Below are positions 6 through 30,927 of a stretch of 64,000 bases of DNA, one piece after another. This DNA is from Candidatus Binatia bacterium (GTDB lineage: Bacteria; Desulfobacterota; Binatia; HRBIN30), in NCBI GenBank assembly GCA_050015455.1, contig JBEKBJ010000009.1, positions 8,508 to 72,507 on the forward strand, given 5' to 3'. Under the pieces are notes generated by a model that was not told the origin of the DNA, did no database searches, and was given only the letters and a program-made list of their open reading frames with translations. The position numbers were made by a program, and so were the translations under genes. Positions within the stretch are counted from its first letter, which is position 1. Each line of letters starts with the position of its first letter.

Positions 6-2942
6 TTGCGTTTGACGGACGCGAATACGCTCAAAGATGGTGCGCGAAACGGCATTGCGGAACTCCGAACCCATCTTCGAGAACTTCGGGATCTGATGCT
101 TTCGAACTCCTCGCAGGCGCAACGTAATAGTGACCCAACCCCTGTCAGCACCGGGGTGGATCTGGCTGGGTTGGGGAACCGCTTCCTCGGGCTGCTCGGT
201 CGCAAGTGGTCGCGCCGCGCCTTCGCTGCGGAAATGGCCAAACTGCTGGCCGTGGCCGCTGGGGCGAAAGCCGCCGCAGTTTTGGCATACGAGCGGCGAA
301 GCGGGTCTCTGGTGCTCCTCGCTGATCATCGGCTCTCGGACGAGGCGCGGGCTGCGCTCGGCAGCGGCGCCGAGGGGGCCTGGGACATTCCGCTTCGAGG
401 GCTGCAGAACCGGCGCATAAGCGTCATCGAGGCGGCACACCACAATCCCTTTGTCCCTCGAGCGCTGCGCCAGTTATGTCCGACGGGGCTCTGTATCGTT
501 TCCTTGCCGGTCTATTACGATTACGACCCAGTCGGCGTCGTCCTGCTGTTTGCGGCCCGCAGCCGCGCATTTGCCGACGGGCAAGTGCAAACGCTGAGTC
601 AGGCCCTGCGCGTGTGTGGCCGCGGTCTGCGTGAGCGCGAGAGCCCGATCGCCCGAATCTCAACCGCAACCGTTGCACCAGCCGTCAGCCCCGCCGAGGC
701 GGCCGCTGAAGCCGCACACCGGGAGGAGCCGACGCTGAGGCTTCTCGGTGGCGGGCAGGTCGAACCGATTCAAGAGAGCCAGCCGGAAGCCGCCGTCACC
801 GAAGCCCAACGTGTGCAGCAGGAACTCGGCCGGGCACAAGCTGAGATGCAGCGCCGCAGCGAAGCGGTGCGCAGCGTCGCAACGGCTACGCGCCTCCTCA
901 GGACCGAGCGTGACCGTCTGGCTCAGCAACTGACGGAGTTGGAGTACCTGCGCAAGAGCGAAAGCGACGAGCTGCGCGCTCAAATAGGCGCCTTGGAAGA
1001 GCGGCTGCTCGCGGCGGAATCGGAGCGGCTGCGCTATCAGCGCGCCGCCGAGGCGAAGCACCAGCGCACCGAAGAGTCCATCCAGGCGCTGCAGGCAGAG
1101 CGTGACGCCTTGTTGGAACGGCTGCGCGCGGCCGAATCGAGTGGTTCCGAGGTGCAGACGGTACTCAATGCGGCACGCCAAGAGCGCGACCAGCTGGCGG
1201 CGCAGATGCAAGCGGAGCTGCAGGAGGCCGCCGCCACGGCCGCGCAGCTCCGTCAACAGCTGCAGGATAGGGCCGCGGCACTCACAACGAGTGATGAACA
1301 GCTGGCCGCTCTCAGGGCTCAGCTGGAGCGAGCGGGCATCGAACGCCAGCAAGCCGAGCGCGTCTTCGAGGATGGGCTCGCGTCGGCGCGCGCGGACCTC
1401 GAGCGGCTGACGGAGGATACCTCGGGGCTCCGAGCCCAGCTCACGCAACGCGACGCTGATTTGGCGCGCCTGCGCGACGATAGTGAACGGGCACAGCAGG
1501 CGCAGAGCGCCCTACACCAAAGTACCGGCGCGTTGCGGGCAGACGTGGTCAAGCTGACGGCTCAGCTCGAGCAGGCGGCGACCGCAGCCGCCATGCGAGA
1601 GTCGGAGCTGGGCGCCGCGCTGGCCCAGGCGCGAGCCGAAGCCGAGACCTTGCGCCGGGCGAGCGCCGATCGGGAAATCCTCGCACGCACAGCGACCGAC
1701 CTCGGCGACAAAGCGGCAAGCCTGGAGCAGATGGTCGCCAGCCTGCGCGAGCAGGTCGCCCTCGCGCACGCCGAAGGCGCACGTGGCGACCAGCAAGCGG
1801 CGGACCTGCGTGCGCAGCTCGCAGCCGCGCAGCACACCTACGAGCAGGCTCGTGCCGATGCCGAACGTGAACGAACGGAACTCCAAGCCGCAGCCCAGGC
1901 AGCGGAAGCCGCGGGGCGAACCGCAACGGCCGAGACCGATGAGCTTCGCCACACCGTGCATGATGCCCTGCAGCGCCTTGAAGAGGAACGGCTGAAGCAC
2001 GCCGCCGAAATCGAAGCTCTGCTCGAAGAGTCGGCGCTGCCGCTCTCTGGCGCAACCACCGAGGCCCCAACGGCAACGCCAGAGGAGGTGCAGGGTGGCG
2101 ATGGGATTGAGATGCCGGAGGGACCGTTGGTCATCGAGCGCTCGGCGCCGCTCGCGGCTGCGGCCGATACACTAGCCGAGGCTGCCGAGAGTCCAGAGCC
2201 GCTCATGGAATACCAGCCAAGAGCCGCATCCGTCGACGAGTTGGTCCTGCTCGACCAAGGGGCGACCGCCGAGCAGGCGTGCGCGGCGCTTGCGGACGCT
2301 GGTTTCCAAGTGACACTATTCCCGTTCGGAGAGACTACGGTAGACGAGCTGGCGCGACGGAAGCTGAAATGCATCATGCTGAACTTGGCTGCCGGCGCAG
2401 CCGCGTGGCGGACGCTGAAGCTGCTGCGCGAGCGCGTCGGCACGCGTAACGTGCCGGTCTTGGTATACGTCATGGCGCCCGATGTCCCGACCGGCTTCTG
2501 CTTCGGGCGGACGGATTTTGCGCTGTGGCCGCTCGAACCCGGTCGCATGATCGAGCACCTCGGCCGGTTGCGTCCGAAATTGCACCGTTTGCTCGCTGTC
2601 ACCTCGGACGTCGACGGCATGAGCCAACTGCGAGAAGCGCTGGCGCGGGCCAAGATCTCGACATCGATCGTGCTCGACGCCAAGCAAGTCATGGATTTCG
2701 CGACGATGATAGACCCGGAAGCGGCTATCCTGCACATCTCCCCGAGCTGTCCGTCCGCCGCTCGCGCCCTGCAGGCTTTGCGTGCCAGTGATTCGACGCG
2801 CGAGCTGCCGTTACTCGTCCTGCTCGACAAGTTCGCGGGGGATGACGAGGCGTTCTTCTCCCAGGCGAGCCAACAGCTGCTGAGCAAGGCGAGGTTTCAG
2901 TTCTCACGGCTGCCGGAAGAGATCGGTCGGTTGATCGGCTGA
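6..2942 (+). CDS. Large coiled-coil protein with an N-terminal GAF-like domain, a ~400-aa coiled-coil core and C-terminal tandem pseudo-receiver (REC-like) domains (FrzS/AglZ-like architecture). The 5' end may extend beyond the window.
   Basis: 978-aa ORF with no stop upstream to position 1. Residues ~90-200 (VLAYERR...LLFAARSRAF) look like a GAF domain. The central ~400 aa are rich in the E/R/A/L/Q heptad pattern typical of coiled coils. The C-terminus has two REC-like folds (LVLLDQG...CIMLNLAAG...PVLVYV and LLAVTSDVDG...PLLVLLDKF) that lack the phospho-accepting Asp. Confidence 0.6.
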   Translation: MRLTDANTLKDGARNGIAELRTHLRELRDLMLSNSSQAQRNSDPTPVSTGVDLAGLGNRFLGLLGRKWSRRAFAAEMAKLLAVAAGAKAAAVLAYERRSGSLVLLADHRLSDEARAALGSGAEGAWDIPLRGLQNRRISVIEAAHHNPFVPRALRQLCPTGLCIVSLPVYYDYDPVGVVLLFAARSRAFADGQVQTLSQALRVCGRGLRERESPIARISTATVAPAVSPAEAAAEAAHREEPTLRLLGGGQVEPIQESQPEAAVTEAQRVQQELGRAQAEMQRRSEAVRSVATATRLLRTERDRLAQQLTELEYLRKSESDELRAQIGALEERLLAAESERLRYQRAAEAKHQRTEESIQALQAERDALLERLRAAESSGSEVQTVLNAARQERDQLAAQMQAELQEAAATAAQLRQQLQDRAAALTTSDEQLAALRAQLERAGIERQQAERVFEDGLASARADLERLTEDTSGLRAQLTQRDADLARLRDDSERAQQAQSALHQSTGALRADVVKLTAQLEQAATAAAMRESELGAALAQARAEAETLRRASADREILARTATDLGDKAASLEQMVASLREQVALAHAEGARGDQQAADLRAQLAAAQHTYEQARADAERERTELQAAAQAAEAAGRTATAETDELRHTVHDALQRLEEERLKHAAEIEALLEESALPLSGATTEAPTATPEEVQGGDGIEMPEGPLVIERSAPLAAAADTLAEAAESPEPLMEYQPRAASVDELVLLDQGATAEQACAALADAGFQVTLFPFGETTVDELARRKLKCIMLNLAAGAAAWRTLKLLRERVGTRNVPVLVYVMAPDVPTGFCFGRTDFALWPLEPGRMIEHLGRLRPKLHRLLAVTSDVDGMSQLREALARAKISTSIVLDAKQVMDFATMIDPEAAILHISPSCPSAARALQALRASDSTRELPLLVLLDKFAGDDEAFFSQASQQLLSKARFQFSRLPEEIGRLIG

Positions 2943-3360
2943 ATCATGGACGACCTCACGCTAGACCTTGCGCCGCCACGCATCGTCCCTGTCGCGAGGT
3001 CACCGGCGGCACCTTGAGTCACCGCCCCTTTGGGACGTTCGGGACTGTTTGGCCGTGAATGCTTGCTGTTGTGATTGCTGGCTCTCTCAAACATTCATAG
3101 GATTGGATACACGTTGACTTTTTCCCTTGTCGATGGCAATTTAACACGCTAGTGTCTCTGCTTTTGGAGGTGAGGTGCAAGGGCAAGGCGGCAGAGGGTG
3201 AATGAAGTCCACTTGCAGTCTGGCGCGGGCGGTACGCGAAGGCGGCGACATGGGGCACGAGGTGGTGCGGATGGTGGGGTATTTTCGGTGGTTGAGGGCT
3301 AGCGAATTGCGTGCGCTGCATCACACGAGGCCGAATCGAGCGTGGACAGAGGAGAAATGT

Positions 3361-6312
3361 ATGGAGTCGCGTGACGCAGAGAACTCTACCAATACGAAAC
3401 AGCAGCTGCTCAGGCGCGCGGGGCGGGGCGAACCCACTCGCGGCCTTGTGCGGGCGGGGCTGATTGCGGCCGGTTGCTTGTATTTTGCATTCCTGGCTGC
3501 ACCGGCGGTGGCAACCGAGCTCGTCAGCGTCAACATCCACGGAGTTTCCGGGGACGGCTCCAGCAGCGGCGTGGCGATGAGCACGAATGGAAACATCGCC
3601 GCGTTTTACTCCGACGCCGACGATCTGGTGCTCGGCGATACGAACCAAGCCCGTGACGTGTTCGTGCGGGACAGCAACGCCGGGACGACCGAACGGGTCA
3701 GCGTCAGTAACTCCGGCGCCCAAGCCAACGGACCAAGCCAGACCCGCGGGCTGGCCCCGGCCATCAGCGGCAACGGCGAGATCGTGGCGTTCTATTCTGA
3801 TGCCAGCAACCTCGTCCCTAACGACAACAACGGCACCACCGACGTGTTCGTTCGCGACCGGCAGGCGGGCACAACCACACTCGTCAGCGTCAATCTGAGC
3901 GGCAAATCCGGAAATCGGCCGAGTCTCTTTCCCAGCATCAGTGCCGACGGCAGCCTTGTCGCCTTTCAATCCGCCGCCTCCGATCTGGTCCCGGGAGACA
4001 CCAATGGAGCAAGCGACATTTTCGTGCGGGACTTACAGGCCGGCAGCACCGTACGGGTCTGCGGGGTCCAGCCAAACTCCTCCAGTCTCAATCCGCAGAT
4101 CAGCGGCAATGGCCGCTTCGTCACCTTCGTCTCTGCGGCCACCAACCTTGACCCCAACGTCACGCCCGGGATCCTCAACATCTTCGTGTGTGATCTGACC
4201 ACGGGTATGGTCAAGTCGGTCAGTGTCAGCAGCGCGGGTGTCCCGGGCAATGGCGACAGCATGACACCCGCCATCAGCTTCGACGGCCGCTTCGTTGCGT
4301 TCAAGTCCGAGTCCAACAACCTGGTGCCGAACGATAACAACGATCTCTTGGATGTGTTCGTGCGCGATACGGTCGCGGGCACGACCGAGCGCGTCAGCGT
4401 GAGTTTAACCGGCGGCGACTCCAACGACGTCTCGTTCCCGCCGGCCATCAGTGATGATGGGCGTTTCGTCGCCTTCGGATCGGCGGCCAGCAACTTGGTG
4501 CGTAACGACGCCAACGGAGCTGCCGACGTGTTTGTCCGCGACCGGCTGGGTGGTGTGACTTTGCTGGTGGACCTCGGTGCCGACGGCCAGCAGGCCAACG
4601 GCGGTATTCCGGACATGCCGCCCGCCATCAGCGGCGACGGGACGCGGATCGGTTTCGCGTCATTCGCAACGAACCTCGTGCCGAATGACCAGAACCAGAT
4701 GTCCGATGTGTTTGCGAATGAGAACCCGTTCTTGTGCGGGACCTGTCCGGAGGGGTTCATGTGCGTCAACGGCTTTTGCTTGCAGCCCACCCCTACGCCG
4801 ACGATGACGTCAAAGACCCCGAGCCAGACCCCGACTCCGACCCCAACGGGCCCGACGTCAACGCCAACCGTAACCGTGACGCCGACCATGACCCCGACCC
4901 CGATTCACTGCATTGGAAACGAGGACTGTTCGTTTGGGCAAGTCTGCGTCGGGGGATTGTGTGTGTTCCCGACGCCGACGCCGACGCCGATCGCCTGCAC
5001 TGACTCGATCACATGTCCGCAAGGTTTGATCTGCCTGAACGGAATCTGTCAGCCGGCGCAATCGCCAACTCCAACCATGACCCCAACGCCCATCCCGACG
5101 TGTTCGACCGATGCCGATTGCGCCAGGACGTGTGACAACTGCCGCGCCACTCAGGACTGCGTCGGCGGCCAGTGCAGCCCGGCCGACCGCTGCGTTGACG
5201 GCGTCTGCGCCCCGACGCGGCTGTGCTCACCGGACAACACGACTGCCTGCATTATCGACCGCGAGACCTGCCTCAACGACACGTGTGTGTGCGGCGGCGA
5301 CTGCAACCAGGATGGGTTTGTCTTCGCCAACGAGATCGCGGAGATGATCTGTATTATGTCGGGTAGCTGTCCGCTGAGCGGCTGTGAAGCGGGAGACCTC
5401 AACCAGGATAATGAGATCGAGGGCAATGAGATCTGCGATGCAGTGACCAATCTCGGCGTTGGTTGTCCGTTGGGCATCCAAAACGGCGCCGCTGTCATGC
5501 CCGCTACAGCCCAGGCGACCCGGACGTTGACGCTGATGGGTCCCCCCAACTCGGTCTTACGTGGTCAGACGATTCCGATCGACGTCAGCCTCAGCGGTGG
5601 CCCGGAGGGGGTCACGGACGTGGCGACGGCACAGTTGGACGTGCTGTTCGACACGACCGTACTCAGCTTCAACGAGTGCACGGTCAATCCGCTGCTGAGT
5701 ACGACCGACGTCTCGTTCACCTTCATGCCGCGCCGGCCAGACACGGCGCCCAACGTGGAGCGCTTGCGGGTGTTCGTCGCGGACTTGGATGTGTGCAATC
5801 CGAACTTCACGCCCAGCAGCCCGGCGATCGGCAACGGGGGACTAGTGACCTGCACGTTCACAGTCAACCCGACGGCGCCGTTTGGACAGTCAGAGGTGGA
5901 GGGCGACCGCACGAACCTCGGCGGTTTTCTCGGAAACGTGATCCCGTCGACCCCAACCACCACGGACATCACTGTCGCCCAGCAGACGTGCACGGCCGAT
6001 ACCGACTGCAATCCGGGCCTCCATTGCCGCGCCGGTGTTTGCACGGGGATCCGTCCCTGCGTCGGTTCTGCCCAGTGTGTGGTCGGCCGGGAGGCATGCG
6101 TGCTAGAAAACGGCACTGGTGTCTGCGAGTGCGGCGGTGACTGCAACCTGGATGGGTTTGTGGAGGGAAACGAGATCCTTACTATGGTCAGTATCTTCGG
6201 TGGAGCTACGCCGCTAGCGAGTTGTCCTGCTGGCGACATCAATGGAGACCTGTATATTGAGGGCAATGAAATTTTGACCGGCGTGTATAATTTCGGCGCG
6301 GGGTGCCCGTAG
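3361..6312 (+). CDS. Secreted multidomain surface 'adaptor' protein: ~10 PD40/TolB-like beta-propeller repeats, Pro/Thr linkers, Cys-rich modules, dockerin-like module 1, cohesin-like domain, Cys-rich module, dockerin-like module 2
   Basis: The track ORF is 3202..6312; I take ATG 3361 as the start because it is preceded by GAGGAG and followed by a signal-peptide-like stretch (LIAAGCLYFAFLAAPAVA). Repeats of the form ISGNGxxVAFxSxASNLVPNDxNGxxDVFVRDxxAGTTxRVSV recur about 10 times and fit the PD40 pattern. PTPTPT linkers are present. There are two Ca-loop pairs of EF-hand/dockerin type (DCNQDGFVFANE and DLNQDNEIEGNE; DCNLDGFVEGNE and DINGDLYIEGNE). A beta-sandwich segment (QTIPIDVSLSGGPEGVTDVATAQLDVLFDTTVLSF) fits a cohesin-like pattern. 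Confidence 0.7.
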   Translation: MESRDAENSTNTKQQLLRRAGRGEPTRGLVRAGLIAAGCLYFAFLAAPAVATELVSVNIHGVSGDGSSSGVAMSTNGNIAAFYSDADDLVLGDTNQARDVFVRDSNAGTTERVSVSNSGAQANGPSQTRGLAPAISGNGEIVAFYSDASNLVPNDNNGTTDVFVRDRQAGTTTLVSVNLSGKSGNRPSLFPSISADGSLVAFQSAASDLVPGDTNGASDIFVRDLQAGSTVRVCGVQPNSSSLNPQISGNGRFVTFVSAATNLDPNVTPGILNIFVCDLTTGMVKSVSVSSAGVPGNGDSMTPAISFDGRFVAFKSESNNLVPNDNNDLLDVFVRDTVAGTTERVSVSLTGGDSNDVSFPPAISDDGRFVAFGSAASNLVRNDANGAADVFVRDRLGGVTLLVDLGADGQQANGGIPDMPPAISGDGTRIGFASFATNLVPNDQNQMSDVFANENPFLCGTCPEGFMCVNGFCLQPTPTPTMTSKTPSQTPTPTPTGPTSTPTVTVTPTMTPTPIHCIGNEDCSFGQVCVGGLCVFPTPTPTPIACTDSITCPQGLICLNGICQPAQSPTPTMTPTPIPTCSTDADCARTCDNCRATQDCVGGQCSPADRCVDGVCAPTRLCSPDNTTACIIDRETCLNDTCVCGGDCNQDGFVFANEIAEMICIMSGSCPLSGCEAGDLNQDNEIEGNEICDAVTNLGVGCPLGIQNGAAVMPATAQATRTLTLMGPPNSVLRGQTIPIDVSLSGGPEGVTDVATAQLDVLFDTTVLSFNECTVNPLLSTTDVSFTFMPRRPDTAPNVERLRVFVADLDVCNPNFTPSSPAIGNGGLVTCTFTVNPTAPFGQSEVEGDRTNLGGFLGNVIPSTPTTTDITVAQQTCTADTDCNPGLHCRAGVCTGIRPCVGSAQCVVGREACVLENGTGVCECGGDCNLDGFVEGNEILTMVSIFGGATPLASCPAGDINGDLYIEGNEILTGVYNFGAGCP
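5284..5469 (+). other. Dockerin-like module 1 of the adaptor protein (two 12-residue Ca-binding loops bracketed by Cys)
   Basis: CVCGGDCNQDGFVFANEIAEMICIMSGSCPLSGCEAGDLNQDNEIEGNEICDAVTNLGVGCP. Both loops have Asp/Asn at positions 1, 3 and 5 and Glu at position 12. Confidence 0.55.
5510..5985 (+). other. Cohesin-like beta-sandwich domain inside the adaptor protein
   Basis: ...LRGQTIPIDVSLSGGPEGVTDVATAQLDVLFDTTVLSFNECTV...LVTCTFTVNP... matches the cohesin pattern (V-P-V-x-L-S-G, then F-x-L-x-F-D-x-x-VL). Assignment is by eye only. Confidence 0.4.
6124..6309 (+). other. Dockerin-like module 2 (C-terminus of the adaptor protein)
   Basis: CECGGDCNLDGFVEGNEILTMVSIFGGATPLASCPAGDINGDLYIEGNEILTGVYNFGAGCP, followed directly by the stop codon. 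Confidence 0.55.
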
Positions 6313-6368: not shown

Positions 6369-7595
6369 ATGAGCATGGATAGGGTAGCATTCGCACCAGG
6401 ACCGCACGCGTACGTCTCGATTAGGCCATTCCTTGTCGCGGTGCTCGCACTGGTGATAGGTTCGGTTGCCGGCGAAGCTCAGCAGGTTCCCACTCTGTCG
6501 GTGGGGAATGGAACCGGGGGCTCGGGCGGCAGCGTGCCGATCGTAATCGGCATCAGTGACGTAACCGGACAGAACGTCGGATCCGCCACCGTTGACGTCC
6601 TCTTCGATAATACGAATCTCATCCTCGCGAACCCGGCGCAGGACTGCGTTCCGAGCGTGGGTAGCGATTTCAGCGCGTCGGCAAGCATTGCAACGACCCC
6701 GGCGCCACCGGCGGGAGAAAGTCGGCTGCGCCTTGGCGTATTCAATATCAAATTCGGTTCCACCCAGACGGTTGAGGACGGGCCGCTGTTCACATGCACC
6801 TTTCAGATTTCGCCCGGAGTGACTCCTCCTGCGAGCTTCACGCTGACCCCAGATCCGGATTCGCCCGAGACTCAAGTTGCGCAAATCGGAGGCGCCGTTC
6901 TTTGCAGCGGCCCGCAGACGCCTTGTGATACCACGCCTGGCCAGATCACGGTGGCTGAGGCCACGGTGACGCCAACGCCCGTGACAACGTGCGTCTACCA
7001 GAGTGACTGTCCGGGGCTGATCTGCCAAAGCGGGGTATGCACCGTGGTCCCATGTACCACGACCGCGGACTGCCCGATCGGCATATGCTCCAACAATAAT
7101 GTGTGCACGGGCCAGCCTTGCAACACCAGCGGTGATTGCCCGCCGAGTCAGGTCTGCCTCAACCAGGTGTGTTCGCAGGTGCAGTGCACCAATGGTACCG
7201 GGTGTCCCTCCGACGCGATCTGCCTCGATGGGACTTGTGTTGCAGCCCCCGCACCAACAGCGACCGAGACGCCGACCTTGATACCGACGAGCACTTCGCT
7301 GCCGACGGGCACGCCGACTCCGCTGCCGACGGGCACGCCGACTCCGCTGCCGACGAATACGCCGACTCCGCTGCCGACGAATACGCCGACTCCCACCGCG
7401 TCACAGACCGCGACGGCCACGCCGAGAGCCACCGACACGGCCTCGCCGGTGCCGAGCGCGACGAACACGGGCGTAGTGCCGGCGCCAAGCTCCGCCGATA
7501 ATGATGGGTGCAACATGTCGCAGTCGGGCTCAGGGGGCGCGCTGCTGTGGTTGCTGGTCCCTGCCGCTCTCATGGTGTACCGCCGGCGAAGGTAG
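6369..7595 (+). CDS. Cell-surface 'anchor' protein: signal peptide, cohesin-like domain, Cys-rich mini-modules, Pro/Thr linker and a C-terminal MYXO-CTERM-like sorting signal
   Basis: The track ORF 6303..7595 overlaps the upstream gene by 10 nt. I take ATG 6369 as the start, preceded by CAGGAGGGAAT. The N-terminal region (VPTLSVGNGTGGSGGSVPIVIGISDVTGQNVGSATVDVLFDNTNLIL) fits a cohesin-like pattern. Repeated CxxxxxCPxGxCxxxxC modules follow, then the PTGTPTPL linker. The protein ends DGCNMSQSGSGGALLWLLVPAALMVYRRRR*. Confidence 0.7.
   Translation: MSMDRVAFAPGPHAYVSIRPFLVAVLALVIGSVAGEAQQVPTLSVGNGTGGSGGSVPIVIGISDVTGQNVGSATVDVLFDNTNLILANPAQDCVPSVGSDFSASASIATTPAPPAGESRLRLGVFNIKFGSTQTVEDGPLFTCTFQISPGVTPPASFTLTPDPDSPETQVAQIGGAVLCSGPQTPCDTTPGQITVAEATVTPTPVTTCVYQSDCPGLICQSGVCTVVPCTTTADCPIGICSNNNVCTGQPCNTSGDCPPSQVCLNQVCSQVQCTNGTGCPSDAICLDGTCVAAPAPTATETPTLIPTSTSLPTGTPTPLPTGTPTPLPTNTPTPLPTNTPTPTASQTATATPRATDTASPVPSATNTGVVPAPSSADNDGCNMSQSGSGGALLWLLVPAALMVYRRRR
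6486..6960 (+). other. Cohesin-like domain of the anchor protein
   Basis: Motifs as described for the anchor protein; assigned by eye. Confidence 0.4.
7303..7398 (+). repeat. Four 24-bp tandem repeats encoding the P-T-G/N-T-P-T-P-L linker
   Basis: Four units of gccgacg(g/a)(g/a)(c/t)acgccgactccgct are visible in the sequence. Confidence 0.8.
7488..7595 (+). other. MYXO-CTERM-like C-terminal sorting/anchor signal (GC motif, hydrophobic helix, RRRR, stop)
   Basis: The tail has a conserved Gly-Cys, an ~18-residue hydrophobic stretch (ALLWLLVPAALMVY) and four terminal Arg. From memory this matches the MYXO-CTERM (TIGR03901-type) architecture. Confidence 0.55.
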
Positions 7596-7627
7596 CCCTT
7601 CGGGGAGCAAACAGCGGCTCTGCACAC

Positions 7628-7660
7628 GAGAGGAGGCCTCCGCGCCTCCTCTCGCTTTTG
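7628..7660 (+). terminator. Rho-independent terminator candidate after the surface-protein operon
   Basis: The stem GAGAGGAGG ... CCTCCTCTC has a 7-nt loop and is followed by GCTTTTGGGG. Confidence 0.5.
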
Positions 7661-7798
7661 GGGCACAGCAATGGCGGGGCAGGTTTCTGTGCTCGCCCGG
7701 TGGCGCCGGCAGCAACGCCTGCTGACGCGGTTTTCTTCGGGGCGGCCCTGCGCAGCCCGCTAGCTTGGCGGCGGATTAGTGGGTATGGTGTCGGCGCC

Positions 7799-9151
7799 AT
7801 GCAGGACGATCCGTTCACCACCCTGATCAAGCGACTCCAGTCACGCCAAGCCGTCGTCGGCATCATGGGCCTCGGCTACGTGGGCCTGCCGTTGGCGGCG
7901 ACCTTCGCGGAGGGCGGCTTCACGGTGGTTGGCTTCGATATTGCGGCCCACAAGATCGAGGAGCTACGCGCCGGCGGCAGCTATATCCGGCACGTCTCGG
8001 CGGAGCGCCTGCGCAACATTGTCCGCTCGGAGCCATTTCGGCGCGGCGGCCCAACCGGTTTCTACCCCAGCACGGAACACGCCCTCTTGCCCGAATGCGA
8101 TGCCATCCTAATCTGCGTGCCGACCCCGCTCACCGAGCACCGCGAGCCCGACCTGTCCTACGTCACCGGAACTACCGAGGCGATCGCCGCTCACCTGCGG
8201 CGCAACCAACTCGTCGTGCTTGAGAGCACGACCTATCCCGGTACCACGGACGAGGTCTTGCGCGAGATCCTCGAGGCGGGCGGCCTACGGGCGGGCGAGG
8301 ATTTCTACTTGGCGTTCTCGCCCGAGCGCGAAGACCCAAACAACGCGCAGTACAACACCAAGACCATCCCGAAGCTGATCGGCGGCTACACGCCGCGCTG
8401 CGGCGAGGTGGCGGTCGCCCTGTACGGAGCGGTGCTGGAGAAAATCGTCCCCGTGTCTTCGGCGCGGGTGGCCGAAGCTGCCAAGTTGCTGGAGAATATC
8501 TACCGCAGCGTCAACATCGCTCTGGTCAACGAACTGAAGCTGCTCTTCGAGCGCATGGGTATCGACGTGTGGGAAGTGATCGACGCTGCGGCAACTAAAC
8601 CGTTCGGTTTCACCCCGTTCTACCCTGGGCCGGGCCTGGGCGGTCATTGCATTCCGATCGATCCCTTTTACCTGACGTGGAAGGCGCGGCAGTACGATCT
8701 GACCACCCGCTTCATCGAGCTGGCCGGCGAGATCAACCACGCCATGCCGGCGTTTGTCATCGAGAAGCTCACTGACGCGCTCAACGAACGCCGGCGCAGC
8801 CTTGGGGGAGCGCGGGTGTTGGTGCTGGGGGTGGCCTACAAGCGCGATTTGGATGACACGCGCGAGTCGCCGGCACTCAAACTGCTCGATCTGCTGGTCA
8901 AGAAAGGGGCGGAGGTCGGCTACCATGATCCGTACGTGCCGGCGTTGGGACGCTCGCGGCACTACGATTTCCATCTCCAATCGCTGCCCCTGACCCCAGA
9001 GGAGCTACGACGCTGGGACGCCGTGATCATTGCCACTGACCATACGGTTTTCGACTATTCGATGATCGTCAGGGCCAGCGCGCTGGTCATCGACACACGC
9101 AACGCGACGCGCTCGGTCACGAAAGACCGAGGGAAAATCGTTCGGGCCTGA
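7799..9151 (+). CDS. NAD-dependent nucleotide-sugar dehydrogenase (UDP-N-acetyl-D-mannosamine / UDP-GlcNAc 6-dehydrogenase family, WecC/TviB-like)
   Basis: The Rossmann motif VVGIMGLGYVGLPLA sits near the N-terminus and the catalytic region GGHCIPIDP is present. Overall collinearity fits the UDP-glucose/GDP-mannose dehydrogenase family. The track ORF starts at 7508; the real start is probably ATG 7799 (MQDDPF...). Confidence 0.85.
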   Translation: MQDDPFTTLIKRLQSRQAVVGIMGLGYVGLPLAATFAEGGFTVVGFDIAAHKIEELRAGGSYIRHVSAERLRNIVRSEPFRRGGPTGFYPSTEHALLPECDAILICVPTPLTEHREPDLSYVTGTTEAIAAHLRRNQLVVLESTTYPGTTDEVLREILEAGGLRAGEDFYLAFSPEREDPNNAQYNTKTIPKLIGGYTPRCGEVAVALYGAVLEKIVPVSSARVAEAAKLLENIYRSVNIALVNELKLLFERMGIDVWEVIDAAATKPFGFTPFYPGPGLGGHCIPIDPFYLTWKARQYDLTTRFIELAGEINHAMPAFVIEKLTDALNERRRSLGGARVLVLGVAYKRDLDDTRESPALKLLDLLVKKGAEVGYHDPYVPALGRSRHYDFHLQSLPLTPEELRRWDAVIIATDHTVFDYSMIVRASALVIDTRNATRSVTKDRGKIVRA

Positions 9152-9332
9152 GCCGGAAAGGGCGTCGGCGGCGACGGAGATCGGCCCTCCAGAGCACTGC
9201 GCAACCCCTCCAGCCCTGCTCCGGAGGCAAGTGAAACGGCAAAAATGGCCCTCTTGACCCATCGCGGCCCGGTTTTTGCGTTGGCGGGGAATCAGTTTTC
9301 GGCCCGGAAGCAACTTTTCCATGACGTTATTC

Positions 9333-9362: not shown

Positions 9363-9466
9363 TGCGCGCACTTAGGTGGTGCGGAGAGCAGCCCGGCCCC
9401 TGAGTGTTGGGACGAAGGCACTAGGAGCCAGTGAGCAGGGAAGGTCGACTGGAAAGGAGGAGGGCA

Positions 9467-10612
9467 ATGCGAACGGTGAAGTGGAACGCTTTACTCTCAT
9501 GCCTCTGCGGACTCGCGGTGGTGTTGGGAGGCGTGGCGGTTAGCGCTCGAGCTGACGTCACGACGGAAAAGGGGGCATCGATCCTCATCTTTCCCAAGGT
9601 GCGCGCCGACGGCACGTTCGATACCATCATTCAAATTGCGAACACCAGTAACAGCATGAGGTATCTACAGTGCTTCTACGTGAACGCGTCCTTGCTGGAC
9701 TCGCTCACGCATTTGCCGTGCACGGTCCCCAGCGCCACCTGCGTACCGCAGTGCCAGGAGACGGATTTCACCATTTGGCTCACTAAGCAGCAGCCAACAC
9801 ATTGGAGCGTGAGCGAAGGCCGCTATTTCAATCCCAATGCGGGATTCGGCACTTATGATTCGGGCTTCGTGCCTGGTCACATCCCGCCGGTGACCGACTT
9901 CGTCGGCGAGCTGAAGTGCATCGAGGTGGATGCTTCCGGCAATCCGTCCATCTCCAACAGTCTAAAGGGTGAGGCCACCCTCGTCTCGCTTGTGACCGGG
10001 GGGGGCAGTACCTTGAGCTCTAATCTCACCGCTGAAGGCGATGTCGCCAAGTATAACGCGATCGGCATCCAAGGTAACCCGGACGTCGCGCCGGTGAATC
10101 CGCTCTTGCTCGACGGGGGCGCGACGTACAATGCCTGTCCAGCCAAGCTGATCTTGAACCACTTCACCAGTGGCGCGCCCGACATTGTCGTGAGCGAGCT
10201 CACTACCGATACGTCGGCAGAGTTCACCGACTTGACGCTGGTGCCGTGCAACGAAGACTTCGAGAATCAAATCCCGAAATCGGTGACCGTGCAGTTCCTC
10301 GTTTACAATGAGTTCGAAGAGAGATACTCGACGAGCATCACAGTCTCTTGCTTTTTGGAGACCGAACTTGCCAACATCGGCCAGGTGTTCACATACGGGT
10401 TTCTCGGCACGGAGGTGGCGCAGGCCATCATCACTCCGGTCGTGCAGGCCGATGGCTCTTCCGGCGGCCTGGTAGGCATCGCGGAACGGATCACCACTGT
10501 TGAGGTAGCGTCGCCGGCGACGGCGGCACGTGCGGCGTACAACCTGCACAGCGAAGGCAGCTTCATTCCTCCGATTGGGCCGGACCAGATCACGCTGCCG
10601 GCAGAGCAGTGA
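9467..10612 (+). CDS. Secreted Cys-containing protein of an unrecognised family (paralog A of a tandem pair)
   Basis: The start MRTVKWN follows GAAAGGAGGAGGGCA. A signal peptide ends ...AVSARA. Blocks shared with paralog B include FPK, CFYV, ETDF..LT..QP..W.VS.G, GELKC.EV, LKGEAT, YNA.GIQ, YN.CP..LIL.HF, LTLVPC.EDF and VQ(F/Y)LVYNEFE.R(Y/F)STS....CF.E. Confidence 0.7.
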   Translation: MRTVKWNALLSCLCGLAVVLGGVAVSARADVTTEKGASILIFPKVRADGTFDTIIQIANTSNSMRYLQCFYVNASLLDSLTHLPCTVPSATCVPQCQETDFTIWLTKQQPTHWSVSEGRYFNPNAGFGTYDSGFVPGHIPPVTDFVGELKCIEVDASGNPSISNSLKGEATLVSLVTGGGSTLSSNLTAEGDVAKYNAIGIQGNPDVAPVNPLLLDGGATYNACPAKLILNHFTSGAPDIVVSELTTDTSAEFTDLTLVPCNEDFENQIPKSVTVQFLVYNEFEERYSTSITVSCFLETELANIGQVFTYGFLGTEVAQAIITPVVQADGSSGGLVGIAERITTVEVASPATAARAAYNLHSEGSFIPPIGPDQITLPAEQ

Positions 10613-10684
10613 TCGCTGGCACAGAGGCAAAGAGGGGAAAAGGCAGTGGCTGGTTTCTCCCTGATAGGTGAAAGGAGAAGGGCA

Positions 10685-11971
10685 ATGCGTACGGTGAAGT
10701 GGAATCCTTTTCTCTCGGGTGTAGCGATGCTCCTGGGAGGGGTGCTCCTATGGGCGGGTGCTGCGCACGCCGATATCTCGTCGACTAACCCGGCGGCGAT
10801 CGTGGTGTTCCCGAAAATAGTGGTCGATACGGGCGCTGTGATATCGGACGCGAAAATCGACACCGTCATTCAACTGACCAATACCGCCCCCCAGGCGGTG
10901 AACGTGCGGTGCTTCTACGTCGACGCCAACGGGCACTGCTCGAACGCCCCGACTGCATTCTGCGATCCGGGCCAGCCGGCGAGCGACTACTGTAGCAGCC
11001 CCGGCTATTGCATACCGGGCTGGGTGGAGACTGATTTCTCTTTCCAGCTGACGGCCAATCAGCCGCTCGTGTGGACAGTGTCTGCAGGCTTGGCCGGCGG
11101 AGACTTTCCACTCGCCTCGTTGCCAGGTATAGGCGGTGAGCTCAACACCGGCAGCATCCCGCAGGCGGCTGAGGATCCGATGCTCGGCGAGCTGAAATGC
11201 GTCGAGGTCGGCGATGACGAGATGCCGGTCGATACGAACGACCTCAAGGGCGAAGCGACAATAGAGCTCCTGACCGGGGTAAATATCGACATCGAGGGCT
11301 ACAACGCCGTCGGCATCCAGGCGATCCCAGGGAGCTGCAGCGGCGACTCCTCGATATCGTGCACCGCCGATACGGACTGCCAGCCGCCGGCAACGAGTGC
11401 TGATGACACGCCGTGCATACACGTGAACAATTTTGACAACACTCTGGTGATCGGCGGGCCGAACGCGGAGTACAACGGTTGCCCGAACACCCTCATCCTT
11501 GACCACTTCTTCGATGACGCGCCGGTGCTTGGGAGCAACGTCGATACGTGGCTCACGTTGGTGCCGTGCTCGGAGGACTTCTTCACACAGACCTGCGTCA
11601 CAACCACCGTGCAGTATCTGGTGTACAATGAATTCGAGCAGCGCTTCTCGACCAGCCGGCCGCTGACGTGCTTTAGCGAGTTGCAGCTTTCGGACATCGA
11701 TACGCGTCTTGGCAACGACCCGCCGAACAACTACACCTCGATCTTCAATGTCAATGTTGAGGGGACGCTGACGGGGCAGACGGTTATCCGTGGTGTCGCC
11801 GATTCCGACCCTACCATAACGCCTGGACACGGTCTGCTCGGGGTCGTACATGAGTTCCACCAGCTGAACGGCGGATCGGCCCCCGTCTTCTCCGCTGCGT
11901 ATATGCTGGATCTGAGTGGCTCACGGACGCAGGCCGACATCGTGCTGATGCCGCCGCCTTCGCCACAGTAA
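10685..11971 (+). CDS. Secreted Cys-rich protein of an unrecognised family (paralog B, with inserted Cys-rich loops)
   Basis: The start context (GAAAGGAGAAGGGCAATGCGTACGGTGAAGTGGAA) is nearly identical to paralog A at the nucleotide level. A signal peptide is present, and the conserved blocks are the same as in paralog A. Confidence 0.7.
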   Translation: MRTVKWNPFLSGVAMLLGGVLLWAGAAHADISSTNPAAIVVFPKIVVDTGAVISDAKIDTVIQLTNTAPQAVNVRCFYVDANGHCSNAPTAFCDPGQPASDYCSSPGYCIPGWVETDFSFQLTANQPLVWTVSAGLAGGDFPLASLPGIGGELNTGSIPQAAEDPMLGELKCVEVGDDEMPVDTNDLKGEATIELLTGVNIDIEGYNAVGIQAIPGSCSGDSSISCTADTDCQPPATSADDTPCIHVNNFDNTLVIGGPNAEYNGCPNTLILDHFFDDAPVLGSNVDTWLTLVPCSEDFFTQTCVTTTVQYLVYNEFEQRFSTSRPLTCFSELQLSDIDTRLGNDPPNNYTSIFNVNVEGTLTGQTVIRGVADSDPTITPGHGLLGVVHEFHQLNGGSAPVFSAAYMLDLSGSRTQADIVLMPPPSPQ

Positions 11972-11999
11972 TTGCATCGAGTAGCTTTGGTGAGCGCAA

Positions 12000-22821: not shown

Positions 22822-23100
22822 CGGTCAACGGCTGCCGCGCGCCCCGTGCCGCGGCGCTAGAGTTCCTGGCTTTTACCTTGTCAATGGCATAGAAGGGTGT
22901 CCTCGTTTCCAACGGCCCGAACGGCCATGACCTGCGAACCACGGTGGAGACGCCGCCATTCGACCACACGGAAGAGTCGACGGTCCCGGCGTCGCTTCCC
23001 AGGGTCGCGCTGTTGCGATGGGAGGAGGAACGATGACGCACACGCGTAGGTGTCTGACGGGCGAAGAGAGTAACCCCGGAAGGTGGCGGGTGGCACTCGC
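22822..23100 (+). repeat. Copy 1 of a duplicated ~270-bp leader (promoter/5'UTR plus first ~25 codons) preceding a dockerin-cargo gene
   Basis: About 90% identical to 29305..29567. Contains CTGGCTTTTACCTTGTCAA, a GGAGG RBS and the conserved N-terminus [13 protein letters not shown](N/K)PGRWRVALA. Confidence 0.8.
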
Positions 23101-26065
23101 AGCGCTGGTTGCATTGCCGATTTGCACGGCGGCCATGGGCGTTGCTGACACCGCAAGCCTCAACATCAGCCCGTGCGTCGTGGGCACCGGCACGGGGGCG
23201 AGCTGCACCGAGACCGCGCTGAATGCCTGCCTCCCAGGCGGCGGGAGTTTCGACGGCACCGTGACCTTCAACTGCGGTGGCGCCGCCACGATTACTGTCA
23301 CCAGCACCAAGAACATTAGCGCCGATACCACCATTGATGGCGGGAGTCTGATCACGATCAGCGGCGACAGCGGCGGCGGCATCTACAACTCCTCGGGCAC
23401 GGTCACCGTCACCAACACTATCGTTGCCAATAGCACCTCGGGCGGCAATTGCGGCGGCAGCGTTCCTGTCACTGATGGCGGCCACAACATCGACGACGGC
23501 CCGACGTGCGGTTTCACGGGCACAGGCTGTACCGCCACGACCGGCACCTCGTTCTGTAACACCAACCCTGTTCTCGACCCCACCGGGTTCCAGAACAACG
23601 GCGGGCCGACGCAAACCATCGCGCTCCAGGCGGGCAGCCCGGCGTTCAACGCTGGCAATGAGTCCGTGTGCGCGGCACCGCCCGTGAACAGCCTCGACCA
23701 ACGCGGCTACGTCCGGCCCGGTACGGGCGCAACAAGCTGCTCCATCGGCGCGTACGAGTACAACTCTGGAATCTCATGCGGCTCGGGCGCGTGTGTATTT
23801 CCCCAGGTGTGTGTTGTTGGTCAGTGCGCCACCCCGGCACCGACTCAGACGCCGACGAGTATGCCGACGCAAACGGCAACCAATACCCCGGTGGTGACCA
23901 ACACTCCGGTGGTGCCGACTGCCACCCCGGTAGCCACCAACACCCCGCAGACCGGCTCGACCAACACGCCGACCACGTGCGGCAGTGCCACCAACTACAC
24001 CGTTGGAACCAATCCGCATGGCGTGGCCGTGGGCGACTTCAACGGCGACAAAAAACTCGACCTCGCCGTGACAAACGAGGGCTCCAACAACGTCTCCATC
24101 CTGCTCGGCAACGGCGACGGCACCTTCGGGACGGCCACCAACTACAACGTTGGAACCGATCCGCATGGCGTGGCCGTGCGCGACTTCAACGGCGACGGGA
24201 AACTCGACCTCGCCGCGGCCAACAACGGCTCCAACAACGTCTCCATCCTGCTCGGCAACGGCGACGGCACCTTCGGGACGGCCACCAACTACAGCGTTGG
24301 AACCAATCCGAATGGCGTGGCCGTGCGCGACTTCAACGGCGACGGGAAGCTCGACCTCGCCGTGACAAACAACGGCTCCAACAACGTCTCCATCCTGCTC
24401 GGCAACGGCGATGGCACCTTCGGGACGGCCACCAACTACAACGTTGGAACCAATCCGCATGGCGTGGCCGTGGGCGACTTCAACGGCGACGGGAAGCTCG
24501 ACCTCGCCGCGGTAAACAACGGCTCCAACAACGTCTCCATCCTGCTCGGCAACGGCGACGGCACCTTCGGGACAGCCACCAACTACAACGTTGGAACCAA
24601 TCCGCATGGCGTGGCCGTGGGCGACTTCAACGGCGACGGGAAGCTCGACCTCGCCACGGCAAACAACGGCTCCAACAACGTCTCCATCCTGCTCGGCAAC
24701 GGCGACGGCACCTTCGGGACGGCCACCAACTACAACGTTGGAACCAGTCCGTTCAGCGTGGCCGTGGGCGACTTCAACGGCGACGGGAAGCTCGACCTCG
24801 CCGCGGCAAACAACGGCTCCAACAACATCTCCATCCTGCTCGGCAACGGCGACGGCACCTTCGGGACGGCCACCAACTACAACGTTGGAACCAATCCGCG
24901 TGGCGTGGCCGTGGGCGACTTCAACGGCGACGGGAGGCCCGACATCGCCGTGGCAAACAACGGCTCCAACAACGTCTCCGTGGGGCTCAATTTGGTCTGT
25001 ACTACGGCAACCCCGACGTTTCCCACCAGCTCGCCGACCAACACGCCTACCAACACCACGGCGCCCACGGTTACGCCGACGTTGGCAAGTACGCCCACTC
25101 AGACTCCGACGCCAACGAACACGCCGAGCGCGACGCCGACACAGACGCTAAGCGCCACCAGCCCCCCTACGTCGACGCCGGCGGTAACGGCCACCAGCGC
25201 GACCGCCACGCCAACTCAGACGCCGACGAGCATGCCGACGTCAACCGCGACCAATACCACGACGACCACACCCACCAACACGGGAACGGCTACACCGACT
25301 GGCACTCCCACAGCGACCCCCTTGCCCCTTGTCGTCAGAGGGACCTGCATGGAACCTAGCTCACAGGGCCTCGCCCCCTGCACTGCCGGCACGGTGGTTA
25401 CTGCCTACCTGTGCACGGACCCAAGCTGCGCGGCGTCGACGCTGATCACACTCGAAGTGACTCAAACGGATGCGAATGGACAGTTCGTCTTCGTTCTCAG
25501 CCGCGGGCAGGTCGCGGGCAAGCGGCTGGTCTTTGACGCCACCATCGTACAGGCCGGAGGTGCCCTGACAACCAGGGGCCGCGCGGCCAGCGACACCACC
25601 GTCGATCTACAAACCATCGATTTCGGTCCCATTGGAGCGGCGACGAATTTGAGTGAGCTGATCGATCTGACATCGGAGGCCGCGGTGCAGCTGGTGGACG
25701 ACAACGGGGGGGCGCAGCACTACAGCGATCAGGGCATCAAGGATATCATCCAAGCCGTGCGAACAGCCGACAGCGGCATCAACTTCGCTGGCTTGACCGC
25801 GGCCGCCGCGGTTACCCTGGCGACCGAGACGGCAGGCAACGATCCCGCGGTACAAGCCGCGCTGCAGATGAAGTTGTGCACCGGCGATTGCAACGGCGAC
25901 GGCACGGTGACGGTTGATGAGATTCTCACCATGGTGAACATCGCCCTCGGCATTGAGGATGTCTCCACCTGCCTCCCCGGGGATGCGAACAATGACAAGA
26001 TGATTACCGTCGATGAGATCCTCACGGCCGTGAACGACGCGCTGAACGGGTGCGCGCCCTCCTGA
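23033..26065 (+). CDS. Secreted cargo protein: parallel beta-helix (choice-of-anchor-Q-like) domain, P/T linker, seven-bladed FG-GAP beta-propeller, P/T linker, unknown domain and a C-terminal dockerin
   Basis: A Tat-like/signal N-terminus (TRRCL..., [17 protein letters not shown]) is present. The beta-helix domain ends with [10 protein letters not shown]...CSIGAYEY. Seven 49-aa repeats of the form [47 protein letters not shown] show the FG-GAP Ca-binding motif. The C-terminal dockerin is [25 protein letters not shown]...[28 protein letters not shown]. The track ORF starts at 23018. Confidence 0.75.
23988..25016 (+). repeat. Seven near-identical 147-bp tandem repeats encoding the FG-GAP propeller blades
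   Basis: The 147-bp period is directly visible; it reads caccaactaca(a/c)cgttggaacc...ggcaccttcgggacggc, with only a few substitutions per unit. Confidence 0.9.
25877..26062 (+). other. Dockerin module (two Ca-binding loops) at the C-terminus of the beta-helix/FG-GAP protein
   Basis: [12 protein letters not shown] and [12 protein letters not shown] loops are each followed by a hydrophobic helix ([10 protein letters not shown] / [11 protein letters not shown]). Cys residues bracket the module. Confidence 0.6.
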
Positions 26066-29304: not shown

Positions 29305-29567
29305 ACCACGGCCGACGCGCGCCCCGTGCCGCGGCGGTAGAGTTCCTGGCTTTTACCTTGTCAACGGCATAGAAGCGTCCTGGTTTCCGACGGCCCAAAC
29401 GGCCATGACCTGCGAACCACGGTGGAGACGCCCACACGAAAGAGTCGACGATCCCGGCGTCGCTTCCCAGGGTCGCACTGTTGCGATGGGAGGGCGAACG
29501 ATGACGCACACGCGCAGGTGTCTCACGGGTGAAGAGAGCAAACCCGGAAGGTGGCGGGTGGCGCTCG
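29305..29567 (+). repeat. Copy 2 of the duplicated ~270-bp leader preceding the second dockerin-cargo gene
   Basis: Aligns with 22822..23100 with a few substitutions and one ~12-bp indel. Confidence 0.8.
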
Positions 29568-30927
29568 CCGGTCTCGGTATGACGGGGGACGGGTTTGCTC
29601 AAGCCGACGTCAGTCTCGTCTTTGGAGACCCAACTGCTTTCCCCGTCGCCGCCACCGCGGCGCCCGAGGCAAGCGGCAGCGCGGCTTTCGATGGAACGAA
29701 CTTTCTCGTCGGCATTCAGACGCAAACTACAGTTGGCGCGCAGCTCGTGTCGCCAGCGGGTGTGACGCTCGGTCCTCTGATCACAACCAATCGCAGCGGT
29801 AATGAGCCGGTGCTCGCTTTCAATGGGACCAATTACCTGTTGGCATGGGCGACGCTCGATGCAAGTCCCTTTGCCTACGGGCAGTTGGTGAGTCCGTCGG
29901 GAACTACCGTCGGCTCCCCGTTTCAAATCAGCCAATCCAACACCGTCATCCTTACCGGAGTGCAATGGTCGTTGGGCGGCATTGCCTCGGACGGGACGAA
30001 CTACCTGGTGGTGTGGACCGATTCACGGCTTTCCCCGGACAAATATATCTACGGGCGCGTGGTTGCGGACTCCGGGAGCCCCGTCGGAAGCGACATCATG
30101 ATCAGCGAGAGCCCCGGCGCGGAAGCCCAAGTCGCCTTCGACGGCAACAACTACCTCGTCGTCTGGCACGGCGAAGACTCCAACAGCTCCTTGGTGATGG
30201 GAAGATTCATGGACCGAGCGGGGGCACTGGTTAGCGCCGAATTCGTTGTGAAAAATGGCCCGGCTCCGAGCGACAATCCCAACGCCGTCGCGTTCGGCCG
30301 AACCAACTACCTTGTGGTGTGGCCGGACGAGGTGGACTCGAGCAGCCACCAGTGGAACATTTTCGGGCAATTGGTGACGCCTTCCGGCGCCCTCACCGGA
30401 GAGGTGCTCCAGATCACCAGCGAGCCCGGGGAGCAGTTTTACCCAACCCTCGCCTTCGACGGTCGCAACTACCTGGCGACCTGGACGAACTTTACGTGCA
30501 ACGTGTCTGCGGGCGAGACGTGCGGAGATGTGCACGGCCAATACCTGAGTCAGTGCGGCACGCCGATAGGCGCTGCATTCCCATAGGCGCGGGAGCTGGC
30601 ACCCAAATGATCTCGCCGGTGGCGTTCGGTGCCGGTCAGTACCTGGTGGTGTGGAATAGTGATGCCACCATCAGCCACAGCGGGATCACCGGCGGCGATG
30701 TGTACGGGACGTTCCTCGCGCCGGTGCCACTGGCCTGCGCCGGTGACTGCGGCGGCGACGGCCAAGTCACCATCGATGACATCCTCACCATAGTGAACAT
30801 CGCGCTGGGCAACACCACCCTTTGCGCGTGCGAAGCGGGCGACGTCAATGGCGACGGCCAAATCACCGTCGATGAGATCCTGACGGCGGTGAACAACGCG
30901 CTCAACGGGTGCGTGCAAGGGCCGTGA
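29501..30927 (+). pseudogene. Dockerin-tagged repeat (propeller-like) protein interrupted by an apparent +1/-1 frameshift near 30,590. It is either a real pseudogene, a slippage site or a sequencing error.
   Basis: Frame 2 (29405..30586) carries ~50-aa repeats (VAFDG.NYLVVW ... GQLVSPSG..G). The same repeat and the dockerin continue in frame 1 (30598..30927: ISPVAFGAGQYLVVW ... DCGGDGQVTIDD ... DVNGDGQITVDE). At the junction there is an imperfect duplication CGATAGGCGCTGCATTC / CCATAGGCGCGGGAGCT. Confidence 0.5.
30736..30924 (+). other. Dockerin module at the C-terminus of the frameshifted repeat protein
   Basis: [59 protein letters not shown]. Confidence 0.6.

Follow-up and report, generated by a model that had tools for sequence, protein, structure and literature searches.

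A 64-kb stretch of DNA from Candidatus Binatia bacterium (contig JBEKBJ010000009.1, assembly GCA_050015455.1; analysed at its full length and termed the window below) encodes a cohesin-bearing anchor protein, and the sequence of its C-terminus supports the presence of a MYXO-CTERM-like sorting signal. The anchor gene occupies 6375..7595 on the + strand and specifies 406 amino acids, arranged as a signal peptide, a cohesin, Cys-rich repeats, a Pro/Thr linker, and a Cys-type sorting tail. From sequence comparison, the description that fits the tail best is of a MYXO-CTERM-class signal in a variant specific to Binatota, a phylum without an earlier report of it. Binatia falls within the candidate phylum Binatota, which lies outside Myxococcota; MYXO-CTERM and myxosortase have so far been reported only from Myxococcota and Bradymonadales. 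The literature held nothing relevant on Binatia or Binatota in connection with cohesin, dockerin, MYXO-CTERM or CPBP. As a whole, the observations are probably best explained by a Cys-type sorting signal of the MYXO-CTERM class on the cohesin anchor, together with the pathway proposed below.

Architecture of the anchor protein

The open reading frame containing the anchor starts at 6303 (GTG) or 6375 (ATG) and ends at 7595 on the + strand. The product of the ATG start is 100% identical to an NCBI entry from a 76.8-kb contig, 'MAG: hypothetical protein ABSA52_04295 [Candidatus Binatia bacterium]' (P0001), whose residue numbering is used throughout. Its translation ends in ...SSADNDGCNMSQSGSGGALLWLLVPAALMVYRRRR*, exactly as the initial annotation had it when it pointed to a Gly-Cys, a single helix, and a poly-Arg end on this protein. 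In order, the tail consists of the signature motif D-N-D-G-C (7497..7511; the codon of Cys379 is 7509-7511), a Gly/Ser-rich spacer, NMSQSGSGGA, between the Cys and the membrane helix (N380-A389; 7512..7541), the transmembrane segment LLWLLVPAALMVY (residues 390-402; 7542..7580) with its conserved Trp392 and Pro396, and the cluster RRRR followed by the stop codon (7581..7595). The four arginines, Arg403-406 (7581-7592), would form a cytoplasmic stop-transfer end. In an AlphaFold2 model built with a 45-sequence alignment, Cys379 lies within a disordered region (297-385) and is followed by a terminal helix at 389-405, predicted with a pLDDT of ~80.

At the other end of the protein, residues 1-~35 (6375..6479) form a putative N-terminal signal peptide with a hydrophobic helix at 16-28 and the ending ...VAGEA/QQ, a call made from the sequence and the AlphaFold2 helix, without a dedicated predictor. 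Next comes a beta-sandwich at residues 40-193 (6492..6953; pLDDT >92). The initial annotation had named the passenger a cohesin. Judged by its predicted structure, it is unambiguously a true cohesin fold: the top 50 Foldseek matches in the PDB are all cohesins with a target TM of up to 0.83, and the best of them, 6kgf_C, aligns at an E-value of 1.7e-9 with a target TM of 0.81 and a root-mean-square deviation of 2.8 A. The Pfam Cohesin model (PF00963) reaches a sub-threshold 14.4 bits against 24.1. Cys-rich mini-domains resembling DUF7107 repeats occupy residues ~205-295 (6987..7259; Pfam PF23416 at 23.9 bits over three stretches; pLDDT 80-88). They lead into a linker that is Pro/Thr-rich in composition and predicted to be disordered (residues ~297-374; 7263..7496; pLDDT ~46-54).

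Conservation and spread of the tail

Eleven homologues with 29-60% identity retain the tail, and the adjoining Pro/Thr linker is not conserved among them. In the alignment of the 12 orthologue tails, the Cys, Trp, Pro and RRR are invariant, so conservation of the Cys, which the initial annotation had made a touchstone for the signal, is complete (12/12). Because these residues are kept while the adjacent linker is not, the tail represents more than chance resemblance. A tail-only profile was searched with HMMER against 1.84 billion representative proteins (cluster representatives) and recovered 92 representatives at E<=1e-3, seven of them at E<=1e-10. Together with the invariance of the 12 tails, this number led to rejection of chance as the source of the tail. 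When 88 tails were aligned, the Cys was the sole invariant column. Among 94 tails, all have the upstream Cys, preceded by Gly in 86 and by an acidic residue within four positions in 72. The Arg cluster ends within eight residues of the C-terminus in 88 of the 94, and the distance from the Cys to the transmembrane Pro is most commonly 17 residues.

The tail is found on more than one kind of protein. Single-linkage BLAST clustering of the N-terminal parts of 75 longer carriers placed 55 of them in one family with the window protein and the rest in 14 other groups. Pfam modules among the non-cohesin passengers include right-handed beta-helix/PMP repeats, DUF4215, sortilin/BNR, FG-GAP, DUF5122, and SBBP/NHL propellers. 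Since about 15 N-terminal groups carry it, including unrelated surface-type modules, the tail as judged from this clustering is modular, yet strongly tied to one passenger type in this lineage. The initial annotation had asked whether other proteins share the tail. Unrelated passengers carry it across the database, and two carriers stand side by side in one related locus (L025); within the window, no second tail of the same type (a hydrophobic segment with a basic end) was present among the open reading frames. Where the organism of a carrier is named, it is Candidatus Binatia (P0001, P0042), and most other carriers come from metagenome contigs. Canonical-looking myxobacterial tails are also found among the profile matches, namely P0055 and a Labilithrix protein (P0061), and the profile thus reaches into ordinary MYXO-CTERM.

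The tail Cys appears to be unpaired, because the number of Cys residues outside the tail is even in 56 of 67 carriers; the window protein has 20 plus the one in the tail. The binomial p of 1e-8 for this excess of even counts exaggerates the significance, the carriers being related.

Further searches returned short sequences. A word-indexed search with the tail profile gave four short fragments, and a metagenome scan for the subgroup 'DDDGCQ…GWLLLxPAA' found at least two short contigs. Seven matches (L001-L007) to a degenerate DNA pattern, one that misses the window itself, were rejected as chance; in L001, the match is an internal LLWLVSPA in an unrelated open reading frame of 287 amino acids. 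One of the four fragments, P0035, is a piece of the anchor gene itself, which the JGI gene calls split into small fragments: its 48 amino acids correspond to window positions 7449-7595 (10001-10147 of L008). JGI labels this fragment 'MYXO-CTERM domain-containing protein', and NCBI labels the intact 406-residue protein 'hypothetical'. The two labels apparently differ because the score is diluted in the full-length protein, an artefact of annotation.

Scores against curated sorting-signal models

Scanned alone, the window tail scores 21.5 bits (51 amino acids) or 22.0 bits (42 amino acids) on the MYXO-CTERM model TIGR03901, above the cutoff of 20, and this is its best NCBIfam match. The whole protein scores 15.1 bits on the same model, which is probably why NCBI calls it 'hypothetical'. 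The scan that the initial annotation had proposed with this model is therefore positive for the isolated tail and negative for the full-length protein. On TIGR03382, the tail falls marginally short (15.6 versus 15.85 bits). When 88 related tails were scanned singly at E<=1e-3, 50 matched MYXO-CTERM, nine JDVT-CTERM, two TIGR03382, one GlyGly-CTERM, and one Synerg-CTERM; the window tail itself has no match to the JDVT-CTERM model. The well-supported matches all fall within the group of Cys-containing signals, which Haft assigned to CPBP-family (Rce1-like) glutamic intramembrane proteases (bioRxiv 10.1101/2023.06.07.544157).

The locus with two carriers illustrates the range within this group. 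L025 encodes two adjacent tail-bearing cohesin-like proteins (7363-8142 and 8429-9319). One has a tail with the W..P helix (P0053) and scores 20.8 bits on TIGR03901 as a whole protein; the other tail (GGGGGGGGCSIDNRTMGAGPWISVLLAAAALLLRRRLARS) has a helix without Pro, looks canonical, and scores 21.6 bits on the MYXO-CTERM model when isolated.

If the signal were GlyGly-CTERM-like, a rhombosortase (a rhomboid serine protease) would cut it past the small residues that precede the helix (…SGG-A-LLW…), with the helix-breaking Pro as a feature of rhomboid substrates. The tail alone passes the GlyGly-CTERM model TIGR03501 (16.1 versus 15.5 bits; whole protein 10.0), small Gly/Ser residues usually precede the Trp, and helix-destabilising residues favour cleavage by rhomboids. 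This reading is nevertheless quite improbable. A single one of the 88 related tails matches the model at E<=1e-3, against 50 for MYXO-CTERM, and the Gly-Gly before the helix is not conserved (ADGSLLW, SSAGWLLL, HLGWMLF). Moreover, it leaves the invariant Cys without a role, and no rhomboid-like open reading frame was present in the DNA screened.

The initial annotation had also likened the tail to PEP-CTERM signals and cited two PrsK-like kinases elsewhere in the window as context for such sorting. Its comparison with MYXO-CTERM stands, the isolated tail passing TIGR03901. The comparison with PEP-CTERM does not: the tail has no Pro-Glu-Pro motif and no match to TIGR02595 even at E<=10. An exosortase-type signal under the control of these kinases would find support in their end-to-end alignment with the PrsK model TIGR02916 and in a nearby gene with a weak likeness to the exosortase-associated acyltransferase model TIGR03694. 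The kinase genes, 43604-45778 and 48211-50520 on the - strand, reach 208.7 and 157.2 bits where the cutoff is 300, however, and the acyltransferase-like gene 33 where it is 112. A distance of 36-41 kb, which includes the housekeeping genes sucAB-lpd (tricarboxylic acid cycle), dnaB and def, separates them from the anchor, and the 64-kb window contains no gene for an exosortase or for PrsR. PrsK belongs to the exosortase/PEP-CTERM system and not to the myxosortase system. Since the tail is not of that type, the kinases are no evidence for the sorting signal, and a link between the two was rejected on all of these grounds. For this tail, a PEP-CTERM reading is effectively refuted and retains almost no probability.

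The kinases belong to a cluster at 39107-54259 that also encodes a LolA-like protein, a DUF1302 protein, a B12-radical SAM protein, a FeeM-like N-acyl amino acid synthase, two FabF paralogues, and an HAE3/MMPL-type RND transporter. This cluster looks like a regulated unit for the synthesis and export of lipids or acyl-amino acids.

Relation to known C-terminal sorting systems

With the MYXO-CTERM signals (MrtX; TraA of Myxococcus xanthus), the Binatia tail has in common its position at the extreme C-terminus and a Gly-Cys with an invariant Cys, followed in order by a spacer, a transmembrane helix, and an Arg cluster. In both cases, a disordered linker precedes the tail, and the passengers are surface-type proteins with N-terminal signal peptides. 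Unlike MYXO-CTERM, the Binatia tail has a single Cys, an acidic (D/N-D-D)/Gly lead-in, and a Trp and a Pro within the helix; its host belongs to Binatota, and its carriers are mostly cohesin modules. According to Haft, the canonical MYXO-CTERM helix is without Pro or charge, and GCGC is frequent (bioRxiv 10.1101/2023.06.07.544157).

Other systems share some of the features that set the Binatia tail apart. JDVT-CTERM, processed by MrtJ (NF033191, NF033192), also combines a single invariant Cys with other conserved residues, a Pro among them. However, its near-invariant D-P lies mid-helix, nine residues past the Cys, whereas the window tail has its Pro 17 residues past the Cys and no D-P. JDVT-CTERM also occurs on a single client per genome, encoded next to its protease; no CPBP gene adjoined a carrier gene in the loci examined here. 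Synerg-CTERM, with its protease MrtS (TIGR04564), likewise combines an invariant Cys with an invariant Pro in a Leu-rich transmembrane segment, but its Cys abuts that segment without the 10-residue spacer of the window tail. GlyGly-CTERM with rhombosortase (TIGR03501; Vibrio cholerae VesB) is likewise tripartite, and small residues precede its helix; it requires no Cys, is handled by a rhomboid-class enzyme, and is known for surface display that depends on the type II secretion system. The proposed order of events also resembles the Lgt-then-LspA lipoprotein pathway, in which a Gly-Cys near a helix is lipidated and intramembrane cleavage beside the lipidated Cys follows. In the Binatia tail, the helix is C-terminal rather than N-terminal, there is no lipobox, and the Cys stands ~10 residues from the helix.

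A bolder proposal is that Binatota possess a Cys-type system of their own, which would add a fifth branch to MYXO-, JDVT-, Synerg- and CGP-CTERM. In it, a co-evolved Mrt-family protease would read the helix Trp/Pro, and a dedicated Lgt paralogue, one of a tandem pair near the carriers (L016-L018/L025), would lipidate the tail Cys, the whole being specialised for a cohesin-dockerin scaffold on a Gram-negative surface. This proposal is doubtful, with a modest chance at best of being correct. A sharply separate system is disfavoured because the W..P and Pro-less tails adjoin in L025.

Search for the processing enzyme

The window and the related loci, which together amount to ~240 kb of non-redundant DNA, yielded no gene for a CPBP protease (PF02517), for the myxosortase core (NF040914), or for a type II secretion system. 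NCBIfam and Pfam annotation of the ~50 open reading frames of the window revealed no CPBP protease, rhomboid, exosortase or sortase. In the gene tables from 11 neighbourhood look-ups, neither PF02517 nor PF01694 was found within 10 kb of a carrier gene; for the window anchor, the neighbourhood was taken from the JGI fragment P0035. A crude regular-expression screen of the open reading frames of the ~240 kb for the CPBP (EExxxR…FxxxH…HxxxN) and rhomboid (GxSG…H) motifs was also negative, and a composite query of the two peptides that Haft gives for MrtX (VVALPEEFFYRGY … RLSVFFPALIFGW) gave no match. According to Haft (bioRxiv 10.1101/2023.06.07.544157), the genes of housekeeping myxosortases never lie next to those of their clients, and the missing protease is therefore only weak evidence against the model.

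A candidate for the lipidating enzyme lies closer to the carriers. In three loci (L016-L018), a carrier gene encoding a double cohesin (P0120) is followed by fabI and then by two tandem full-length genes of the Lgt family (12320-13893 in L016). Their products match PF01790 over its full length at 150 and 158 bits and fall below the cutoff of the TIGR00544 equivalog (85 and 88 versus 118.9 bits). The same type of cluster in L025 ends with fabI, and an Lgt-family gene lies further on, in a matching relative position (11618-12151). Guo et al. (2025) named Lgt as the leading candidate for the acyltransferase of the MYXO-CTERM Cys, as a hypothesis (PMC11980579).

A proposed pathway for the anchor

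In M. xanthus, MYXO-CTERM proteins are exported by Sec and transiently anchored by the C-terminal helix; the Cys is lipidated, myxosortase cuts after it, and transfer to the surface depends on the type II secretion system (PMC11980579). All of the biochemistry in the following pathway is drawn from that organism, and what is seen here is the corresponding sequence features. On this basis, cleavage, lipidation, the responsible enzyme and surface display can be inferred for the anchor. The N-terminal signal peptide would carry the protein across the inner membrane, where the C-terminal helix would retain it with the Arg cluster on the cytoplasmic side. The unpaired Cys379, predicted to lie in a disordered segment ~10 residues outside the membrane, would be lipid-modified, possibly by an Lgt-family enzyme. 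A myxosortase-like glutamic intramembrane protease of the CPBP family would then cut just after the Cys, removing the helix and the Arg tail. The lipidated anchor would reach the external side of the outer membrane, probably via a type II secretion system. At the surface, the cohesin on its long Pro/Thr stalk could dock the dockerin-like modules of proteins encoded by neighbouring genes.

Several points weigh against this account. No CPBP, myxosortase core or type II secretion gene is present in the DNA screened, and the whole window protein stays under the TIGR03901 cutoff and is left 'hypothetical' by NCBI. Nor does the tail fit the canonical description of MYXO-CTERM, since Pro396 is invariant in the orthologues and CxC is present in just three of the 94 tails. 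A Pro inside the transmembrane helix is seen in 89 of the 94 and a Trp at its start in 85, but there is some circularity in these frequencies, since tails having Trp and Pro went into the search profile; the Cys and terminal-position figures are less affected. With 55 of the 75 longer carriers sharing a cohesin-like N-terminal domain, the spread over families is far narrower than in myxobacteria. Finally, the linkage to Lgt may be coincidental: the loci come from related genomes and are homologous to one another, and fabI has a housekeeping role.

Some of these observations would suit a plain, uncleaved C-terminal anchor. In such an arrangement, the cohesin would be held on the inner membrane for a periplasmic cohesin-dockerin assembly, and the Cys might serve, for example, in an intermolecular disulfide. 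The lack of a processing enzyme in the window and the ~240 kb and the sub-cutoff score of the whole protein are as expected for this arrangement, the TolB/PD40-like propeller of the partner is typically a periplasmic module, and with 55 of 75 carriers in one N-terminal family the tail could be a family feature. A plain anchor has no need, however, of an invariant Cys, of an acidic/Gly lead-in ~10 residues out, or of a fixed Trp and Pro in the helix on unrelated passengers. Furthermore, the best-scoring curated models are all of cleaved sorting signals, and the modules of the passengers (beta-helix/PMP repeats, FG-GAP, BNR, Ig-like) are of kinds typical for surface proteins. The screened DNA contains outer-membrane genes (LolA-like, OmpA-type and others); given the LolA-like and OmpA-type genes the organism is diderm, and an anchor left uncleaved in the inner membrane could therefore not show the cohesin on the surface. 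The plain anchor is accordingly considered unlikely, and the MYXO-CTERM-class signal is preferred.

Dockerin-like partners and neighbouring genes

That the anchor is part of an assembly is suggested by its neighbours, and the initial annotation's view of a cohesin anchor is supported by dockerin-like partners encoded next to it. Directly upstream, on the + strand, a gene at 3202..6312 (JGI start 3448) encodes a PD40/TolB-like propeller protein with Cys-rich repeats, a weak cohesin-like region, and a C-terminal dockerin-like module with a duplicated Ca-loop (~6130-6309). Its product is the likely binding partner of the cohesin, and its adjacency to the anchor gene is conserved in all syntenic loci. 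In a survey of the window and loci L008-L018, L022, L024 and L025, every related locus has one to three genes with a Cys-bracketed, duplicated D-x-N-x-D-G Ca-loop end directly upstream of the cohesin-tail gene. The bodies of these proteins are PD40 propellers, FG-GAP/choice-of-anchor-Q modules or YLVVW repeats, and their ends score 12-14 bits on Pfam Dockerin_1 (cutoff 22.9) and have EF-hand matches. No protein in this survey combines the cohesin-tail and the Ca-loop module. Because a cohesin fold is accompanied by dockerin-like genes directly upstream in every related locus, the term 'cohesin anchor' seems reasonable on sequence grounds.

Two further candidate cargo proteins are encoded on the + strand of the window. 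The second candidate (23018..26065) is an FG-GAP/choice-of-anchor-Q protein whose dockerin-like end (~25870-26062) scores 14.1 bits on Dockerin_1 (cutoff 22.9) and has EF-hand matches. The third (29405..30927) consists of repeats and ends in a dockerin-like module, and a frameshift near 30575 apparently splits its gene: the open reading frame 29405-30586 has YLVVW-type repeats that run on in an overlapping frame, 30235-30927, and into the dockerin-like end. This split could reflect an assembly error, a pseudogene or recoding. The N-terminus encoded by 23018-26065 matches residues 28-56 of the 29405-30586 product almost perfectly, as if the 5ʹ end and leader had recently been duplicated from one of these dockerin-ended genes to the other.

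Other genes accompany the anchor in the syntenic loci. Two paralogous secreted proteins of 393 and 441 amino acids (9431-10612 and 10646-11971), each with one N-terminal hydrophobic segment and neither with a Pfam or NCBIfam match, are encoded as a pair downstream of the anchor in all of them, usually just past a nucleotide-sugar dehydrogenase gene. Directly upstream of the dockerin/cohesin pair, again in all syntenic loci, lies an open reading frame (6..2942 in the window; 2648-5494 in L008) for an Ala/Glu/Gln-rich, probably coiled-coil protein of 978 amino acids (948 according to JGI), whose sole match is weakly SMC-like (31 bits).

Implications for cohesin anchoring and Cys-type sorting

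Known cohesin anchors are attached by SLH modules or through LPXTG/sortase, in Gram-positive bacteria. With the anchoring scaffoldins of Firmicutes, such as ScaE of Ruminococcus flavefaciens, the Binatia protein shares a cohesin on a long Pro/Thr stalk, an envelope tether, and dockerin partners encoded nearby. Unlike those scaffoldins, it belongs to a Gram-negative host and is tethered by a putative Cys-type tripartite signal in place of SLH modules or LPXTG/sortase. Its partners have propellers or FG-GAP modules and are not recognisable as glycoside hydrolases, and their dockerin-like modules are Cys-bracketed and remain under the Pfam Dockerin_1 threshold. If the proposed pathway is true, the Binatia anchor would represent a new tether for cohesin scaffolds, namely a lipid-type C-terminal signal in a diderm bacterium, with cargo that is not obviously cellulase.

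A distinct version of MYXO-CTERM in uncultured Binatota would also widen the reach of Cys-type, CPBP-processed sorting. Its single Cys and its helix Trp and Pro may serve as natural variants with which to probe recognition by the protease. Additionally, the Lgt paralogues encoded beside carrier genes would be a concrete candidate for lipidation of the MYXO-CTERM Cys.

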